Source of the DNA: an uncultured Eubacteriales bacterium
GTDB taxonomy: Bacteria > Bacillota > Clostridia > Oscillospirales > UMGS1783
Reading direction: 5' to 3'
Length of the DNA: 64,000 nt
Assembly: GCA_934456365.1 (NCBI GenBank)
Contig: CAKSHC010000002.1
Coordinates: 211,981 to 275,980 of the forward strand
Part shown: positions 151 through 61,646 of the stretch, piece by piece
Numbering within the stretch: position 1 is the first letter of the stretch
Layout: every line of letters begins with the position of its first letter
Translations under genes and position numbers: made by a program
Notes under the pieces: model-generated
What the model was told of the DNA's origin: nothing
The model's database searches: none
Seen by the model: the letters and a program-made list of their open reading frames with translations, nothing else

Positions 151-2513
151 CCGATGAAAAATGCTTGAGGCTGCTCGAATTCGATAAGATCCTCGAGCGC
201 CTTTCCCAGGAGGCGCAAACGGCCGCCGGCCGTCAAAAATGCCTCGCTCTTTCGCCCGAGTCCGACCGGATCGTCGCGCAGGAGCAGCTCGACCAGACCC
301 GCGCCGCCCTCTGGCTCTACGACCATAAGGGCAGCTTCTCAATGCCCGCCCTCGGCGATCTGAGCGAGCTTCTGCGCCGCACCGGCGCGGGCGGGCTTTT
401 GTCGCCCGCCGAGCTGTGCGATGTGGCCCGCGTCCTCGAGGCCTCCCGCCGCCTTGCAGCCTACCGCGGCGAGGAGGAAATTCCCGAGCCGGCGCTCGAC
501 GATTATTTCGTCCGCCTGCAGGGCAATAAATTTTTTGAAGACCGCGTTTTCCGCTCCTTCACCCCCGAGGGTGAGCTGTGCGACGCCGCATCCCCCGCCC
601 TCGGCGACATTCGTCGTAAAATGCAGCAGGCCCGCTCCCGCGTGCGCGAGGCGCTGCAGAAGCTCATCCGCTCGGCCCAGTATCAGAAGGCCCTGCAGGA
701 CCCCGTCGTCACCCAGCGCGGCGGGCGCTTCGTCGTGCCGGTCAAGGTCGAGCATAAGGGCGAGATCCAGGGTCTTGTCCACGACGTGTCCCCCTCGGGG
801 ATGACGCTTTTCGTCGAACCGGCCTCGGTCGTCGAGGCCAACAACGAGATCCGCATTCTGGAGGGCAGGGAAAAGCAGGAGGAGGAGCGCATCCTCGCCG
901 AGCTCTCGGCCGCCGCCTGCGACGAGGCCGAGCGGCTGGAGGAGGATTATGCGCTGCTCGCCTTTTTCGACCTCTGCTTTGCCAAGGCGCGCCTCGCCGC
1001 CGCCTGGAAAGCCACCGAGCCCCGGCTCAACGAGCAGGGCAGGGTGGTGCTCAAGCGCGCCCGCCATCCGCTGATCGACCGGGAAAAGGTGGTGCCCATC
1101 GACCTCTCGCTCGGCAAAACGGCCGATACCCTCATCATCACCGGCCCCAACACCGGCGGCAAAACCGTCACTCTGAAAACCACCGGCCTTCTCTGCGCCC
1201 TCGCCGCCTCCGGCCTCTTTATCCCCTGCGACGACGGCTCGGAAATCGCCCTGTTTGACCGCATCCTGGTCGACATCGGCGACGAGCAGTCCATCGAGCA
1301 GTCGCTCTCCACCTTCTCCGGCCACATGACCAATCTGGTCGCCATTCTGAAAAAGGTCACCGGCCGCTCCCTCTGCCTCTTCGACGAGCTGGGAGCCGGC
1401 ACCGATCCCATCGAGGGCGCCGCATTGAGCCAGGCCATTTTGGAGGAGATCCGCGAAAAGGGCGCCAGGATCCTCTGTACCACCCATTATCCCGAGCTGA
1501 AGATCTATGCCCTCCAAACCGAAGGGGTGCAGAATGCCTCCTGCGAGTTTGATGTGGCCACCCTTCGCCCCACCTATCGGCTCATCCTCGGCACCCCCGG
1601 CCGCTCCAATGCCTTTGCCATTTCCGAGCGCCTTGGGCTGCCGCGCCCGATCCTGGAGCGCGCCGCCAACCATCTCGACCAGAGTGACGTCGACTTCGAA
1701 AAGCTTCTCCAGCGCATCGAGGAAAACCGACTGGAAACCGAAAAAATGCGCCGCGAAGCGGAGGACGCCGAGCGTCGCGCCCGGGAAACTGAAAACCGCG
1801 CCAAAACCATGGCGCGCGACTACGAGAAAAAGCTCAATCAGGAGCTCGACCGGTCCCGCGCCGAGGGCAAGCGCGTCGTTGCTTCGGCCCGCGCCCGTAT
1901 CGATTCGGTGCTCGACGAGCTCGATTCCCTCATCAAAGAAAAGGAACGCGCCGACTTCAAGGAGCGCGTCGGCGCCTTCCGCAGCAAAACGAAAGCCACC
2001 CTCAAGGAGCTTGACAACGAGATCGACCCCGTCCGCGAAGAAAAAACGGTCTATGTCCTGCCCCGTCCTCTCAAAATCGGCGATACGGTGGAGGTCCCCG
2101 GCATCGCCCGCGCCGCCCGTGTCCTCTCCCTGCCCGACGGGAAGGGCAAGCTGCGTGTTTCCTCCGGCTCGATGAGCTTTGAGGTCGCCGCCTCTTCGGT
2201 GCGCCTGATCAGGCCGCCCCGCGAAAAGAAGGCCTATGTACCATCATCCACCGGCAAAGCGCAGGGTGCCGGCACCTCGCTCAATATCATCGGCAAGCGC
2301 GCCGCCGAGGCCGAGCCCGAGGTCGAGCAGTTTATCGACCGCGCGGTGCTCTGCAACCTTTCGGAGGTCACCATCGTCCACGGAAAAGGCACCGGTGCGC
2401 TGCGCCAGGCTGTTTGGGATCTGCTGCGCGCCCATCCCTCGGTCGAATCCATGCGTCTGGGCGCCTACGGCGAGGGCGACGCCGGGGTCACAGTAGTCAA
2501 GTTAAAGCAGTGA
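147..2513 (+). CDS. mutS2: Endonuclease MutS2 (MutS ATPase core plus C-terminal Smr domain)
   Basis: 788 aa. Walker A ITGPNTGGKT, DELGAGTDP motif, coiled-coil region, C-terminal Smr-like VTIVHGKGTGALR. Confidence 0.95.
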   Translation: MTDEKCLRLLEFDKILERLSQEAQTAAGRQKCLALSPESDRIVAQEQLDQTRAALWLYDHKGSFSMPALGDLSELLRRTGAGGLLSPAELCDVARVLEASRRLAAYRGEEEIPEPALDDYFVRLQGNKFFEDRVFRSFTPEGELCDAASPALGDIRRKMQQARSRVREALQKLIRSAQYQKALQDPVVTQRGGRFVVPVKVEHKGEIQGLVHDVSPSGMTLFVEPASVVEANNEIRILEGREKQEEERILAELSAAACDEAERLEEDYALLAFFDLCFAKARLAAAWKATEPRLNEQGRVVLKRARHPLIDREKVVPIDLSLGKTADTLIITGPNTGGKTVTLKTTGLLCALAASGLFIPCDDGSEIALFDRILVDIGDEQSIEQSLSTFSGHMTNLVAILKKVTGRSLCLFDELGAGTDPIEGAALSQAILEEIREKGARILCTTHYPELKIYALQTEGVQNASCEFDVATLRPTYRLILGTPGRSNAFAISERLGLPRPILERAANHLDQSDVDFEKLLQRIEENRLETEKMRREAEDAERRARETENRAKTMARDYEKKLNQELDRSRAEGKRVVASARARIDSVLDELDSLIKEKERADFKERVGAFRSKTKATLKELDNEIDPVREEKTVYVLPRPLKIGDTVEVPGIARAARVLSLPDGKGKLRVSSGSMSFEVAASSVRLIRPPREKKAYVPSSTGKAQGAGTSLNIIGKRAAEAEPEVEQFIDRAVLCNLSEVTIVHGKGTGALRQAVWDLLRAHPSVESMRLGAYGEGDAGVTVVKLKQ

Positions 2514-2514
2514 T

Positions 2515-2850
2515 GAACGAGGAATGAGAAATGAGAAATTAAGGTAGGCGCGGGGCGCGCCATCCGATAGAATGCCCTTGTCCTTTAACGCGCCGCAGGC
2601 GCGGCACCGATGAGCAAAAAGAAACGCCCCACACGCAAAAAGAACGAAGTTCTCTGCGTGGGGGCGGAGCGTTTGCGAGTCGAAAGGAGGGGAGCGAGCC
2701 GACCGCCGCCGGTGGCGGAGGAAGGAAGGCGAGCGAGTGGCCGCGGTCGAATTTTTCAAGCGAGCGCTGCGAGCGCCGAAAAAGGCGGGCACCGCAACAG
2801 GAGCAAGGAAGCGGGCGACGACATTTTTTTGTTTTTCAAACAAAAAAATC
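2515..2850 (-). repeat. tRNA-downstream repeat family A, copy 1 (inverted relative to copy at 60487-60775)
   Basis: The 123-nt core (2679-2801) differs from the reverse complement of 60508-60630 only at one base and one short 6-8 nt patch. Shared terminal module: GGCGCGC hairpin plus CTCATTY heptads (2515-2580). Begins right after the tRNA-Thr terminator. Confidence 0.75.
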
Positions 2851-3271: not shown

Positions 3272-4324
3272 TTATTCCTCGTCCTTTAGTCGGCCGCGGG
3301 TGATCAGATAGGGATTGATGGAGATCAGCCCGGCCGAGCCGCCGTCGAGGCAGCTGAGCAGCGCGCGAAACGCCCGCCGCGCCTGCTCCTCCTGTCGCTG
3401 ATCGATGATGGCCGCCAGGCTCCCGCTGCGCAGACAGGCGCAGTTTTCCCGGGTGGCGTCCACACCCACCAGGCGCACCTCCCGGCTTTTTCCCAGCTCT
3501 TCCAGCGCTTTGCAGACCATCCAGGCGCTGTAGGTGGAAACAAAGGCCGCGCGGGGCGCGTCGGGCGAGGAAAAGCGGGCCAGCGCCTTTTCGTAGGCTA
3601 CCTCCGGATAATCGCAGCTGGCATGCACCTGCCCGAGGGAAAGCCCGTAAAAGCCGAGCTCCTGCTCAAAATTGTCGATATAGCGCTTATACATGTCCTG
3701 CGGCGGCACCACCGCGGCAAACACATCGGCCCGCTCGCCCGGAGAAAGCACCGCGCCGAAGAAATCGGCGGCAATGCGCCCGCCCACTGCGCCGTCGAGC
3801 ATCACATGCCCGCAGGTTTTGGTCAGCGTCAGCCGGTCGCCCAGCGAAACCACGGGGATCCCCTGCGCATGAATGCGCTCGATCGGGGCCCGCCGCCGGT
3901 CCTCGTAGATATCCGGATGGGAGAGGATCAGCCCATCGTAGCCGCCTTCGGCCATCTCTTCGAAAACGGATTCCGCGTCTTCGCTGATTGTGGAATAGGT
4001 CAGAAGATGCAGCTCCAGCTTCCCGCCTTCGTATTCGGCCGTGGCCTGCGCAAAGCCCCGGCGGAACTTCTCAAAAATGGAGGGCGGGGTGTTCGGCATA
4101 CCCACGGCGATGCGGATCAGGCTCTTATGAAAATTGCGGGCCACGGTGTTGGGTTCGTAGCCCATCTGCTCGGCCAGCTCGCAGATCTGCGCCCGTTTGG
4201 CCGCGCTGATATTGCTCTTTCCGGCCAGCGCGTTGCTCACCGCCGCCGTCGAAACGCCCGTCATGCGGGCCAGGTCCTTGATCGTCACCTTATGAGAGGT
4301 CAGAACCTCTTTCTGATACAGCAT
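3272..4324 (-). CDS. LacI family transcriptional regulator
   Basis: N-terminal HTH VTIKDLARMTGVSTAAVSNALAG...YEPNTVARNF and a periplasmic-binding-protein-like C-terminal fold. Confidence 0.9.
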   Translation of the reverse strand: MLYQKEVLTSHKVTIKDLARMTGVSTAAVSNALAGKSNISAAKRAQICELAEQMGYEPNTVARNFHKSLIRIAVGMPNTPPSIFEKFRRGFAQATAEYEGGKLELHLLTYSTISEDAESVFEEMAEGGYDGLILSHPDIYEDRRRAPIERIHAQGIPVVSLGDRLTLTKTCGHVMLDGAVGGRIAADFFGAVLSPGERADVFAAVVPPQDMYKRYIDNFEQELGFYGLSLGQVHASCDYPEVAYEKALARFSSPDAPRAAFVSTYSAWMVCKALEELGKSREVRLVGVDATRENCACLRSGSLAAIIDQRQEEQARRAFRALLSCLDGGSAGLISINPYLITRGRLKDEE

Positions 4325-37818: not shown

Positions 37819-38175
37819 TCATTTTTCTGTTCCTTTCGCTGTGTTGATGGAAGCGATCAGCATCCTGCGAATGGTGCCGCATGAATTGTGCAGGGGCTTT
37901 GCTTTCTCACTGTTGATCAGATTGGATTTTTCAAATAGCGCAATCCAGTATTCGGTTTCAAAGCATTCCTTCAAAGCGATCTGAAGCTTTGCAATGAAAT
38001 CCGCTTTTCCATGGGCATAATTGGCTTCATGGATATTTGCGCCAATGCTCGTGGCCGCTCGTTCAAATTGATTGACAAGAGAATAATGTCCCTTAATATT
38101 TTCACAAAGTCGGATTGCTTCTACGGAAAAATCCATGGAAAAATCAACGAGCTTATTTTCCTTCAATCCATTCAC
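37819..38175 (-). CDS. Four-helix-bundle protein (23S rRNA intervening-sequence protein family)
   Basis: 118 aa with family-typical ERAATSIGANIHEANYAHGKADFIAKLQIALKECFETEYW. Visibly AT-richer than all neighbouring genes. Confidence 0.85.
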   Translation of the reverse strand: MNGLKENKLVDFSMDFSVEAIRLCENIKGHYSLVNQFERAATSIGANIHEANYAHGKADFIAKLQIALKECFETEYWIALFEKSNLINSEKAKPLHNSCGTIRRMLIASINTAKGTEK

Positions 38176-38190
38176 CTCTGCAAAAAGTTG

Positions 38191-38377
38191 TTCATGAAAT
38201 ATCGCTGCGCGATATGAAATAATTTGCTGCGTAAATTATGAAATTTTCCGCTTCGCGGAAAGTGAAATAAAATTCGCCTTTTCATATTTGGCAAAGCCAA
38301 ATATTTCATACGCTTTAGCGTATTTCATAGCGAAGCTATTTCACTCGCCGGTAGGCGAATTTCATTGAAAAATGGAC
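38191..38377. repeat. Repeat family B, unit 1 (187-nt hairpin array)
   Basis: Differs from unit 2 at only 3 positions. Seven short GC-cored hairpins separated by TGAAAT (left half) or ATTTCA (right half). Confidence 0.85.
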
Positions 38378-38436
38378 GATAAAAAGGTTTTGTCCGATTC
38401 GGGATTTTTGCGCAGACAAAAAGCGTATTGTTTTTC

Positions 38437-38623
38437 TTCATGAAATATCGCTGTGCGATATGAAATAATTTACTGCGTAAATTATGAAATTTTCCGCTTC
38501 GCGGAAAGTGAAATAAAATTCGCCTTTTCATATTTGGCAAAGCCAAATATTTCACACGCTTTAGCGTATTTCATAGCGAAGCTATTTCACTCGCCGGTAG
38601 GCGAATTTCATTGAAAAATGGAC
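38437..38623. repeat. Repeat family B, unit 2 (187-nt hairpin array)
   Basis: Direct repeat of 38191-38377 at a 246-nt period. Abuts the tRNA-Tyr terminator. Confidence 0.85.
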
Positions 38624-59013: not shown

Positions 59014-59075
59014 AAAGAGCACCCCTTTCTTTTCTCCAGTATAGCGTAGGGCGCCGGAAAAGTCAAACGGAAAAG

Positions 59076-59107
59076 AAAAAAGGCAGGGCATAAAGCCCCG
59101 CCTTTTT
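59076..59107 (-). terminator. Terminator after the csp gene
   Basis: GGCAGGGC-ataaa-GCCCCGCC (one mismatch) flanked by A6 and T5. Confidence 0.7.
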
Positions 59108-59117
59108 GCCGGTTCTC

Positions 59118-59327
59118 TTACTCAGGAATGACGTTGACCGCGCGCAGCTTGCTCGCGTTCTTGGGATCCTGCTCGGTTTCGAAGGAAACCTTCTGGCCCT
59201 CGTTGAGGGTCTTGAAGCCGTCGACCTGGATCGCGGAGAAATGCACAAAAACATCCTCGCCGCCTTCATCGTTGGCGATGAAGCCATAGCCCTTTTCTGC
59301 ATTGAACCATTTGACAGTACCGGTCAT
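59118..59327 (-). CDS. cspA: Cold-shock protein (CspA family)
   Basis: [17 protein letters not shown]...DVFVHFSAI (RNP1 and RNP2 motifs). Confidence 0.95.
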
Positions 59328-59370
59328 GTTACCGTACCTCCAATAAAATGTTATTCCGATCGAAGGCTAT

Positions 59371-59428
59371 AAAAAACTCACATTTTGTGTAAATCATCAA
59401 CGAACGAATGACTTACATAAAATGTGAG
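59371..59428 (-). promoter_or_regulatory. Terminator-like hairpin inside the csp 5' leader
   Basis: 16-bp arms CTCACATTTTATGTAA / TTACACAAAATGTGAG (one mismatch) with a 20-nt loop, followed by U6. About 45 nt upstream of the csp ATG. Confidence 0.5.
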
Positions 59429-59457
59429 TCGTACAGCGCTGTTCAGAACACGCGTTT

Positions 59458-60369: not shown

Positions 60370-60446
60370 GCGCTATTAGCTCAGCTGGATAGAGTGACTG
60401 GCTACGGACCAGTAGGTCAGGGGTTCGAATCCCTTATAGCGCGCCA
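60370..60446 (+). tRNA. tRNA-Arg (anticodon ACG), CCA encoded
   Basis: Acceptor GCGCTAT/ATAGCGC, anticodon stem ACTGG/CCAGT, loop CTACGGA, T-loop GGTTCGAATCC. Confidence 0.92.
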
Positions 60447-60486
60447 CGTCGTCGCGGACTTCACTTGTTCGCGACGACGTTTTTTG
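60447..60486 (+). terminator. Terminator of tRNA-Arg
   Basis: 11-bp stem ACGTCGTCGCG/CGCGACGACGT followed by TTTTTG. Confidence 0.85.
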
Positions 60487-60775
60487 TTTCTCAAAAAACA
60501 CGCCATCCCTGTTGCGGTGCCCGTCTTTTTCGGCGCTCGCAGCGCTCGCTTGAAAAATTCGACCGCGGCCACTCGCTCGCCTCCCTTTTTCCGCCACCGG
60601 CGGCGGTCGGCTCGCTCCCCTCCTTTCGACGCGTAAAATGCTTAGTCTATTCTATCGAATGGCGCGCCTCGCGCGCCTACCTCAATTCCTCATTTCTCAT
60701 TCCTCATTGCCCTTCCTGCGCGCCTACCTCAATTCCTCATTTCTCATTTCTCATTCCTCATTGCCCTTTTCTCGC
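60487..60775 (+). repeat. tRNA-downstream repeat family A, copy 2, with tandemly duplicated terminal module
   Basis: Core 60508-60630 matches the reverse complement of 2679-2801. The terminal module GCGCGCCTACCTCAATTCCTCATTTCTCATT... is present twice (60671-60717 and 60718-60771), with 3 versus 4 CTCATTY heptads. Confidence 0.75.
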
Positions 60776-60800
60776 ACCAAGGCCCCCTTGTTAATGGGGG

Positions 60801-60832
60801 AGCGAACCGGCCCCGCCCGGTTCGCTTTTTCT
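60801..60832 (+). terminator. Second terminator closing the repeat-A region
   Basis: AGCGAACCGG-ccccgc-CCGGTTCGCT followed by TTTTCTT. Confidence 0.7.
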
Positions 60833-60853
60833 TGTCAAAAGGAATCTCCTGTT

Positions 60854-60926
60854 TTGACATTTAGTGCTTGTCATTTCGGAAAGAATGTGCTATACTTTGC
60901 CTATGAATGACATTCAGTAAATGTCA
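60854..60926 (+). promoter_or_regulatory. Promoter/operator cassette copy 1 (TGACA-N9-TGTCA x2)
   Basis: TTGTCA (60868-60873), 17 nt, TGcTATACT (60888-60896). Operators at 60855-60873 and 60908-60926. About 85% identical to 61574-61646. Confidence 0.6.
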
Positions 60927-60959
60927 TTCAACTTTCAAAAGAGAAAAGGAGAGCAAAAA

Positions 60960-61280
60960 ATGAGGTATTCGATCGGGGATAAAATCAAGGTGTGCGCCCA
61001 TGTGATCCTGGGCGTGGGGCTGGCGGTGCTTCTCTTTGCCGCGCTGAAATACAATGCCTTTATGATCCTCTATTTCGGAGGCTTTTCCATGGTGGCCGTT
61101 TGGCTTTCCATGTATGGCTTCGGCGAAACGCTGGACGCCAACACCCAGCTGAGAGACGATCTGCAGGAGATCCGCCGGGAGCTGGCGGCCCGCAGGGAAA
61201 TTCCCGGCGCCGATCCCCGGCGGGAGTTTGTCTTTGATCCGGGAAGGGATCTGCCGTCCGATCCTCCCGCACAGGAGTAA
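60960..61280 (+). CDS. Small membrane protein (2 TM) with charged C-terminal tail
   Basis: 106 aa from ATG 60960 behind AAAGGAGAG. No family recognised. Confidence 0.6.
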   Translation: MRYSIGDKIKVCAHVILGVGLAVLLFAALKYNAFMILYFGGFSMVAVWLSMYGFGETLDANTQLRDDLQEIRRELAARREIPGADPRREFVFDPGRDLPSDPPAQE

Positions 61281-61559: not shown

Positions 61560-61573
61560 CTTCCACCTCCGAT

Positions 61574-61646
61574 TTGACATTTAGTGCTTGTCAATATCGA
61601 AAGTATATGCTATAATGCCTGTTGATATGACATTCACTGAATGTTA
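61574..61646 (+). promoter_or_regulatory. Promoter/operator cassette copy 2 (TGACA-N9-TGTCA / TGACA-N9-TGTTA)
   Basis: TTGTCA (61588-61593), 17 nt, TGcTATAAT (61608-61616). Operators at 61575-61593 and 61628-61646. Divergent from the XRE gene. Confidence 0.6.

Follow-up and report, generated by a model that had tools for sequence, protein, structure and literature searches.

What are two nearly identical non-coding stretches doing behind two different tRNA genes of the same uncultured gut bacterium? The question is raised by a 64-kb piece of contig CAKSHC010000002.1, assigned to the Eubacteriales; the whole of this piece is what we call the window. A first-pass annotation had noticed, downstream of tRNA-Thr(CGT) and of tRNA-Arg(ACG), a dispersed, oriented repeat made of a core and a tail of heptads. 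We favor the reading, with a probability of about 0.6, that the copies in the window represent rearranged parts of a mosaic of hairpin repeats which is specific to the lineage and lies behind tRNA genes, and that one piece of the mosaic, the core, is a distinct, non-autonomous insertion element. We call the core module A, the tail module C, an insert of about 105 nt module D, and the terminators that follow the CCA end of the tRNA genes T1 and T2. Modules B and F are seen in sister contigs only, and module E in sister contigs and once in the window. The finding belongs to known kinds of bacterial repeat DNA, although the A family appears undescribed in Rfam and in the literature surveyed. For the window itself the message is modest: the stretches are non-coding repeat DNA, not genes.

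The Two Copies in the Window

The two look-alike stretches are real: 130 nt at 2672-2801 (minus strand) and 60508-60637 (plus strand) are 95% identical. Their cores differ, as had been noticed, at one base (CCCGCC vs. CCCGTC) and in one patch (TTCCTTCCT vs. TCCCTTTTT). A strong intrinsic terminator, found by a terminator scan, lies right behind each tRNA gene. The tail, a hairpin followed by CTCATTY heptads (CTCATTTCTCATTCCTCATT), is restricted to the two loci, with 5 matches in the window against 0.00 expected.

Copy 1 lies on the minus strand behind tRNA-Thr(CGT) (2880-2954; ARAGORN, and 72 bits with the Rfam tRNA model). It begins with T2 (2823-2879), in which a hairpin (2850-2879; a 13-bp stem plus ATTTTTTTGT) abuts the CCA end and is followed by a T-run and an A/T palindrome; the same T2 is found behind other tRNA genes in relatives (read-through open reading frames, ORFs, P0009 and P0019, and locus L093). 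Module A comes next (2689-2801; 113 nt with two stem-loops; repeat search, and nhmmer at 2688-2802 with E = 9e-30). Read forward on the minus strand it runs CCTGTTGCGG...GCTCGCTCCCC, a body of 109 nt with GG on each side. The "123-nt core" of the earlier description was a conserved unit drawn slightly too long: what is common to other loci stops at ...GCTCGCTCCCC (113 nt), and alignments place the last 10 nt (TCCTTTCGAC; 2679-2688) in the two window copies only and outside A elsewhere. The extra segment that distinguishes copy 1 is module D (2574-2671), with two hairpins and a T-rich run behind the first. It is itself a repeat, 93-94% identical by blastn to D in L088/L089 and present in L093 too. 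Module C (2516-2573) closes the copy with ATTCTATCGGATG, a hairpin GGCGCGCCCCGCGCC (2547-2561), and then TACCTTAATT and the heptads. The tail adjoins mutS2, as had been noticed, and begins 3 nt past the stop codon (2511-2513, plus strand).

Copy 2 lies on the plus strand behind tRNA-Arg(ACG) (60370-60446; ARAGORN and Rfam). Its T1 (60447-60507) is a terminator hairpin, T-run and A/T palindrome abutting the CCA end. The terminator had been taken for a flank of the element; T1 belongs to the repeat family, as near-identical copies lie directly behind tRNA-Glu(TTC) and tRNA-Pro(TGG) in sister contigs (96-100% by blastn, L088-L091). Module A follows in forward orientation (60508-60620; repeat search, blastn and nhmmer), then C (60649-60714; hairpin 60661-60677, then TACCTCAATT and heptads) and a second, partial C, called C′ (60717-60770), a tandem duplication with one heptad more (47-nt spacing, 97% identity; the duplicated tail stretches are 60671-60708 and 60718-60755). 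A module E hairpin (CCCCCTTGTTAATGGGGG; 60777-60805), which recurs in L090 and L091, leads into the probable original terminator of the locus (GCGAACCGG..CCGGTTCGC plus T-run; 60802-60835). In L090 a copy of the latter terminator abuts tRNA-Arg, and the repeat array lies downstream of it.

A protein-coding function was considered and rejected. Long ORFs through the copies (e.g., 2502-2918 and 60465-60794) have no Pfam domains, and indels together with the 7-nt heptad changes break all reading frames through the copies.

Turnover of Arrays in tRNA 3′ Flanks

Related loci were found at the protein level: the element, translated in six frames and used as the query, hit spurious ORFs (P0001-P0005), whose contigs gave four further loci from the window's clade. 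Modules were mapped by blastn against about 140 kb of the lineage and by reading the locus sequences. Every module match in these 140 kb lies just downstream of a tRNA gene, and the read-through ORFs add two tRNAs with T1 or T2 behind them.

The order of modules is far from constant. Copy 1 in the window is T2-A-D-C, and copy 2 is T1-A-C-C′-E followed by the native terminator. Behind tRNA-Met and tRNA-Glu(TTC), L088/L089 has T1-A-B-C-D-T1′-A-B-C. Behind tRNA-Pro(TGG), L091/L092 has T1-B-C-E-A(reversed)-E-F-heptads. Behind tRNA-Thr(CGT), L093 has T2 and a 17-nt piece of A, then B-C-D-T1′-B-C-C. L090, which is syntenic to copy 2, has the native terminator behind tRNA-Arg, then 120 nt and two units, each consisting of a tRNA-Arg 3′ fragment (T-loop to CCA), T1 and A. 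A, C, D and T1/T2 are thus separable and occur in varying combinations and orders, which disposes of a single "core plus tail" element. Nor is the orientation fixed: all other modules keep the direction of the tRNA, and A alone changes orientation, being reversed in L091 and in most lineages outside this clade.

How the arrays change can be read from close relatives. Between the window and L090 the flanks are 94-96% identical, whereas the arrays measure 364 vs. 1014 nt. The second unit of L089 begins inside the terminator hairpin, and L093 keeps just the 17-nt piece of A, from which we conclude that arrays grow by tandem duplication and lose modules by deletion between short homologies. Arrays thus differ by these two processes among genomes that are about 95% identical. 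T1 plus A of the window tRNA-Arg locus is 98.9% identical to that of the L089 tRNA-Glu locus, and such near-identical units behind different tRNAs may have spread by recombination between loci.

A selective explanation would be that the arrays serve as spare terminators or insulators, piled up where tRNA promoters are strong and shielding convergent genes such as mutS2 or genes downstream. T1, T2, B, C and D each combine a GC hairpin with a pyrimidine- or T-rich run in constant tRNA direction, and copy 1 occupies the entire gap to the convergent mutS2. But the native terminators are strong already, terminator-like sites are not enriched (4 found vs. 2.7 expected from shuffled sequence), and only T1 and T2 have the GC-rich hairpin and T-run of an intrinsic terminator; A has no such shape. 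With array content varying freely among close relatives and the tRNA-Leu genes of L091 doing without an array, we consider this explanation very improbable.

A second alternative has more to recommend it, yet is still rather unlikely to us. The arrays could be miniature integrative elements or their scars, units of 250-500 nt that entered tRNA genes at the T-loop or anticodon loop in the manner of tyrosine-integrase substrates, brought T1 along and accreted in tandem, much as very small cis-mobilizable elements (CIMEs) would, with A as part of a recombination arm. CIMEs, as defined in PMC5704250, are established, and so is the accretion of integrative elements in tandem at the 3′ ends of tRNA genes (PMC5704250), as are tRNA fragments as footprints of integration (PMC9897764). 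Three copies of a 20-mer, GAATCCCTTATAGCGCGCCA, that covers tRNA-Arg from T-loop to CCA delimit the units of L090, in agreement with the scar idea of the first-pass annotation. L102 and L105, loci of other lineages, have an intact tRNA, terminator, spacer, A, spacer, a tRNA 3′ fragment from the T-loop and the native terminator; in L101, tRNA-Pro 5′ halves end in the anticodon loop; in L094, the array abuts a prophage lysis module; and at least four different tRNAs have T1 right at their CCA end. The direct repeats of the target tRNA 3′ end at both borders that define a CIME are seen in L090, L102 and L105. The window, on the other hand, has no such fragment repeats: its tRNA 3′ 20-mers are confined to their own genes, apart from a match, with 1 mismatch, of the Thr 20-mer within the paralog tRNA-Thr(TGT). 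The borders of duplications are irregular, and the second units of L089 and of a Gut-1 array described below start inside a terminator hairpin, as in ordinary tandem duplication. The same T1+A unit is also found behind tRNAs with differing 3′ ends. The explanation may hold for arrays while A stays an independent insertion element, and the case against it for A itself comes from the copies described in the next two sections.

The assemblies themselves bear marks of these repeats. Contig L004 ends inside window copy 1. L093, a 965-nt contig of about 2x coverage, joins the tRNA-Thr side of copy 1 through the array to the sequence downstream of copy 2; a chimera of the assembly is the probable cause, a real rearrangement the alternative. 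The repeats explain why metagenome assemblies break or are mis-joined at tRNA flanks (L004, L093).

As to the host, several contigs from human-gut metagenomes, Hadza samples among them, encode the identical MutS2, whereas the closest GTDB representative among the matches listed is 47% identical. The host therefore belongs to a poorly represented lineage of Clostridia, and one that forms spores, as GerA, YabP and YqfD genes adjoin mutS2.

Distribution of Module A

A HMMER scan with P0002 against 1.84 billion representative proteins gave 59 clusters of spurious ORFs, many carrying a divergent translation of A (signature CCGAR-x12-DR[GC]HSLASL-PPPAA-GSLP). The repeats thereby explain families of "hypothetical proteins" produced by gene callers. 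DNA copies of A were read in L094 and L097-L105, where A lies by tRNA-Leu (L094, adjoining prophage lysis genes), tRNA-Pro (L101 and L105), tRNA-Met/Trp (L102), and tRNA-Lys/Glu and 5S rRNA (L103). Four IMG/VR contigs have A amid coat, tail or portal genes (a two-box pattern and a relaxed version of it gave the same 4 contigs), and four GenBank records of human-faecal phages match A. In Vescimonas fastidiosa, a cultured member of the Oscillospiraceae, the 861-kb replicon pMM35_01 has 24 places with A. Judged from these sequence matches, A is present in many gut Firmicutes/Clostridia and in some of their phages. The claim that the repeat is dispersed was therefore borne out, in sister contigs, other gut lineages and phages.

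Several searches were negative. Repeat search and nhmmer profile found no third copy in the rest of the 64-kb window, and the A profile had 0 matches in 80 other Clostridia mutS2 loci (605 kb, the best relatives listed by MutS2). An exact 25-mer of the core had 0 matches in GTDB species representatives, and core and tail patterns had 0 matches in IMG/VR; a 19-mer in JGI metagenomes had three chance matches only, within coding sequence.

Does A always follow a tRNA gene? Tying the repeat to tRNA genes was correct for the window's lineage (Thr-CGT, Arg-ACG, Glu-TTC, Pro-TGG and, judging by the read-through ORFs, two more), in which all module matches obey the rule. Stretches derived from tRNA are present in at least 16 of the 59 ORFs, a figure biased by discovery through ORFs, which favors long non-coding arrays. 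A less biased sample is 240 kb of V. fastidiosa, where 9.9-35 kb separate the five full copies of A from the closest tRNA gene, the sample having 15 such genes. Given these distances, the link to tRNA genes is specific to certain lineages (the window's clade and several others that bear arrays) and is not family-wide.

The sampled part of pMM35_01 (1-241 kb; L107-L111) also has three short matches of 32-35 nt to the second domain of A alone. The replicon is labelled a plasmid, but with dnaK, groEL, ftsH, 15 tRNA genes and gene-table gaps that are probably rRNA, it looks like a chromid or part of a chromosome. In the phage represented by L099 and L100, about 100 nt past A (L099 2700-2790), there is a hairpin GTCGGCGTAGCCGAC, then ACCTTAATT and TTTTGAA/TTTTGCA heptads. 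The layout resembles module C of the window with another heptad, and the shared ACCTYAATT may be due to chance.

Module A as a Discrete Insertion

Module A has sharp, constant ends in unrelated contexts and in both orientations, and the same sites are found with and without it, which shows it to be a discrete insertion. Each of the 14 copies tabulated lies between two GG dinucleotides; in V. fastidiosa, the left-hand dinucleotide of one copy is AG. The clearest comparison is in L103, where the empty site is GTGTCCGGT-GG-ACACTTGC and the filled site has identical flanks, the 106-nt body and a second GG, filled and empty sites being the same palindrome. Both states are also seen at the D-loop of tRNA-Pro (L105), the D-arm of tRNA-Leu (L094) and the E-F junction (L091). 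No target duplication beyond the GG accompanies the insertions.

Wherever the site can be reconstructed, the insertion point of A is GG (once AG), within or beside the loop of a sequence able to form a hairpin. In L105, a tRNA-Pro 5′ fragment is split by A at its D-loop GG, and in L094 tRNA-Leu 5′ fragments are split in the D-arm; pieces of tRNA-Pro in L101 and L105 have A behind the GG of the anticodon loop, and pieces of tRNA-Trp in L102 have it at the GG of the T-stem. In V. fastidiosa, four of the five full copies are in the loop of a palindrome, CGGGCCGATGT[GA]GGCATCGGCCC, that resembles repetitive extragenic palindromic (REP) sequences; three are exact and one has a variant arm. The palindrome, also written CGGGCCGATGT[GA]GGCATCGGCCCCTACG, has at least 10 empty occurrences in the 240 kb. 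An empty site for the insertion in the L099 phage was searched for and none was found.

These positions are awkward for A as part of the recombination arm of an integrative element: A lies far from tRNA genes and integrases in V. fastidiosa, between structural genes in phages, and inside tRNA D-loops, which are no usual att position. An attP beside a phage integrase was rejected likewise, as A in phage contigs sits among coat, tail or portal genes. Targeting of the IS200/IS605 type, as in palindrome-associated transposable elements (PATEs), predicts a conserved target of 4-5 nt 5′ of the left end; the left flanks of A differ on either strand (ATC, GCT, TCC, CGC, TTT, TGT and others). Nor is A an intron of functional tRNA, since the interrupted copies are truncated fragments and ARAGORN detects intact genes only. 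The suggestion that the repeat is a MITE (miniature inverted-repeat transposable element) came close in direction to the reading favored here, as did that of an integrative scar. A is indeed small, non-coding, multi-copy and polymorphic for presence, but its ends, 5′-CCTGTTGCGG and TCGCTCCCC-3′, are not complementary, so that the terminal inverted repeats of a classical MITE are lacking, as are, in the window, direct repeats of tRNA ends.

Is Module A a Functional RNA?

The body of A is 106-110 nt long and has four conserved sequence boxes. In the orientation we call A-forward the consensus is CCTGTTGCGGTGCCCG, a variable hairpin, GACCGC[GT]GCCACTCGCTC, about 12 nt, CCGCCNCCGGCGGCG, about 6 nt and TCGCTCCCC; the A-reverse strand reads 5′-GGGGAGCGA...GCAACAGG-3′. 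Two stem-loop domains are predicted. The first has a closing helix (GCGGU/ACCGC), a bulge of 3 nt and then an inner helix, which takes five or more distinct sequences among the lineages. Pairing within the helices amounts to 96%, seven pairs are changed on both sides, and the covariation score was reached by 0 of 500 shuffles. The proposal that aligned copies be checked for covariation was thus rewarded with compensatory changes.

Four conserved boxes and two helices with compensatory changes are also what a functional structured RNA would show, one made, most likely from the A-reverse strand, from tRNA-type promoters, by read-through or in 3′ untranslated regions (UTRs), its copies being gene copies. 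Other observations point the same way: A-reverse stands directly behind a promoter and a tRNA 5′ fragment in L094, L101 and L105; it is co-oriented with the neighboring tRNA in eight of nine lineages outside the window's clade and with the flanking phage genes in L097 and L099; A remains GC-rich within AT-rich hosts; and in copy 1, A-reverse points as a 3′ UTR of mutS2 would. Against this, A is found in both orientations relative to the nearest gene and mostly forward in the window's clade, neither a promoter nor a terminator is conserved at its borders, the sequences flanking it are unrelated, and it is polymorphic for presence and lies within other palindromes. The strand is not singled out either: the wobble evidence is symmetric (two G-U cells per strand), folding energy likewise does not separate the strands of A, and folding of the whole unit favors the tRNA-sense strand modestly (z = -6.8 vs. 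-4.8). No Rfam family matches: at the gathering threshold of Rfam 15, modules A, B, C and D are free of matches both in the window and in 10 loci, and at E up to 10 there are chance-level matches only, at the two window loci. On balance we regard a functional RNA, an idea that the first-pass annotation had raised as a co-transcribed ncRNA, as an unlikely account of A. Known RNA families, attC- or dif-like sites and domain V of group II introns were rejected as well, as there was no Rfam match and, on comparison by eye, no resemblance to the consensus sequences.

How Module A Might Move

If A is an insertion element, how would it move without encoding anything? In the scheme we favor, modules T1/T2, A, B, C, D, E and F would have accumulated in the tRNA 3′ flanks of an uncultured lineage of human-gut Clostridia, and A would be mobilized in trans by a recombinase encoded elsewhere, entering at a loop GG, for example, of the CGGGCCGATGTGGGCATCGGCCC palindrome or of a tRNA gene. 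The mover could be an IS607-like serine transposase (exchange of GG for GG, no inverted repeats) or an IS110-like enzyme that targets palindromes. tRNA flanks probably collect modules as they have hairpins on offer (terminators and cloverleaf arms) and neutral DNA from earlier integrations. A cellular role, such as extra termination or protection of mRNA ends, would be secondary, if there is any.

A number of observations sit uneasily with this scheme. The full-length conservation of the four boxes and the covariation would also suit a functional RNA, and so would the co-orientation of A-reverse with tRNA genes outside the window's clade. The junction by CAACAGG is irregular and no clean conservative exchange: a purine invariably follows the right-hand GG, and in three of the first four comparisons (L105, L094 and L091) this base is not that of the empty site; in V. 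fastidiosa a G is replaced by AT or GT, which does not fit IS607 simply. The filled V. fastidiosa palindromes share flanks, so a joint spread of palindrome and A, as a single unit, is conceivable in place of repeated targeting. The two window copies, which share the 10 extra nt, probably arose from each other by recombination and not by two insertions. No autonomous partner, that is, a transposase flanked by the ends of A, was found, and mobility is deduced from comparing sequences, not observed. Finally, the census of the window's lineage rests on contigs rather than on a complete genome.

A scan of 30 window ORFs showed no recombinase, nor did the genes called in L001. A cognate serine transposase was likewise absent from the window, from the called genes of the fetched loci and from the annotation of the V. 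fastidiosa 240 kb, whose gene table is incomplete; no genome-wide search was made. The four boxes and the GG borders now provide a sequence handle for finding the recombinase of A. Small recombinase/RNA systems of the sort considered here are attracting interest at present as tools for genome editing.

More speculatively, A could represent an undescribed class of tiny structured mobile elements, in gut Firmicutes and the phages of these, that home to GG in hairpin and cloverleaf loops (D-, anticodon- and T-arms), their two conserved stem-loops perhaps serving as recognition or guide elements of an IS110/IS607-like system acting in trans, and that break, duplicate and reshuffle tRNA loci. We hold this bolder version to be doubtful. 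If A does seek hairpin loops, it would be a force that reshapes both phage genomes and tRNA loci in gut Clostridia that are abundant yet little studied.

Gut-1 Repeats and Other Features of the Window

The window contains a second repeat with similar habits. The Gut-1 RNA motif (Rfam RF01706) was described as a candidate small RNA from human-gut metagenomes (PMC2864571). At 38188-38623 (minus strand), two Gut-1 matches (38298-38367 and 38544-38613) lie in a 246-nt tandem duplication directly behind the terminator of tRNA-Tyr, the second unit starting within the terminator hairpin. In L090, a Gut-1 copy lies in an insertion of about 390 nt (3655-4046) that is absent at the orthologous site of the window (54554/54577). 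The tandem copies and the insertion indicate that Gut-1 acts as a dispersed polymorphic repeat and not as a single-copy small RNA gene. It resembles the arrays in being hairpin-rich, in tandem behind a tRNA terminator, and polymorphic for presence between the window and L090; it differs in its unrelated AT-rich sequence and in having an Rfam entry, which A does not. Is the Gut-1 "small RNA" of Rfam, then, also a mobile repeat? Right after the Gut-1 array behind tRNA-Thr(TGT) and tRNA-Tyr, at 37819-38175 (minus strand), sits a gene for a 118-aa 23S rRNA-intervening-sequence protein, a four-helix bundle (PF05635, E = 2e-25).

Beyond copy 2, a promoter-like segment of 42 nt (TTGACATTTAGTGCTTGTCA...TGCTATA) occurs at 60853-60894 and 61573-61614, 720 nt apart and 86% identical, the two copies flanking a small gene (60921-61280). 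An exact-protein look-up of the gene downstream of copy 2 gave no match. At 59075-59456 (minus strand), a match to the Rfam cspA thermoregulator (80.7 vs. a gathering threshold of 78 bits) lies upstream of a cold-shock gene and is conserved in L090. Between 5308 and 16641 there are several large ORFs with collagen-like G-X-Y repeats of 9 nt and repeated units of about 141 nt; with DUF4988/BNR/FG-GAP-type matches in the identical contig L001, they probably encode surface proteins.

Comparison with Known Systems

The units of L090, L102 and L105 are like CIMEs in being without recombinase genes, in tandem, and bounded by direct repeats of tRNA 3′ ends. The window copies differ in having no such repeats, and the borders of the duplications are irregular. 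Units of 250-500 nt are also far below the size of typical decayed islands.

IS607 inserts at GG, has GG termini and no inverted repeats, and makes no target duplication (PMC6188088). A shares all of these traits, with GG at its ends and at its insertion site, and has short direct repeats inside its ends (the GAGCGA words). It differs from IS607 in being about 110 nt long and encoding nothing, in one or two changed bases at the right-hand junction, and in its preference for hairpin loops, which is unreported for IS607. No IS607-like gene was found beside any copy of A.

The IS110/IS1111 elements offer another parallel. ISPpu9, of the IS110 family, is reported to insert into REP sequences, and its small-RNA gene to be present separately elsewhere in the genome as well (PMC12288879). 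A is like ISPpu9 and IS621 in being inserted in palindromes, without inverted repeats and with a two-base core on each side; a structured element that also occurs as additional copies recalls the ISPpu9 small-RNA gene. A differs in that no DEDD transposase is seen, and the targets of A share nothing beyond GG and the hairpin context.

For the arrays as a whole, the nearest parallels are mosaic intergenic repeats such as the REP sequences and bacterial interspersed mosaic elements (BIMEs) of Escherichia coli, the Neisseria intergenic mosaic elements (NIMEs) and Correia elements, and the pneumococcal BOX. The sequences are unrelated, and here the arrays lie behind tRNA genes and include the tRNA terminator and, in relatives, tRNA fragments. 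REP and BIME units (described in PMC2817692) are palindromes of 20-40 nt in alternating orientation, linked to REP-associated tyrosine transposases (RAYTs), whereas A is about 110 nt with two different stem-loops and the other modules keep a single orientation; a gene of the RAYT type is not known for the arrays, although no search aimed at one was made. The V. fastidiosa palindrome that hosts A is itself REP-like but differs in sequence. What the arrays have in common with BIMEs, NIMEs and BOX is the way they are built: short intergenic hairpin modules, restricted in sequence to particular species, that shuffle and change in copy number from strain to strain.

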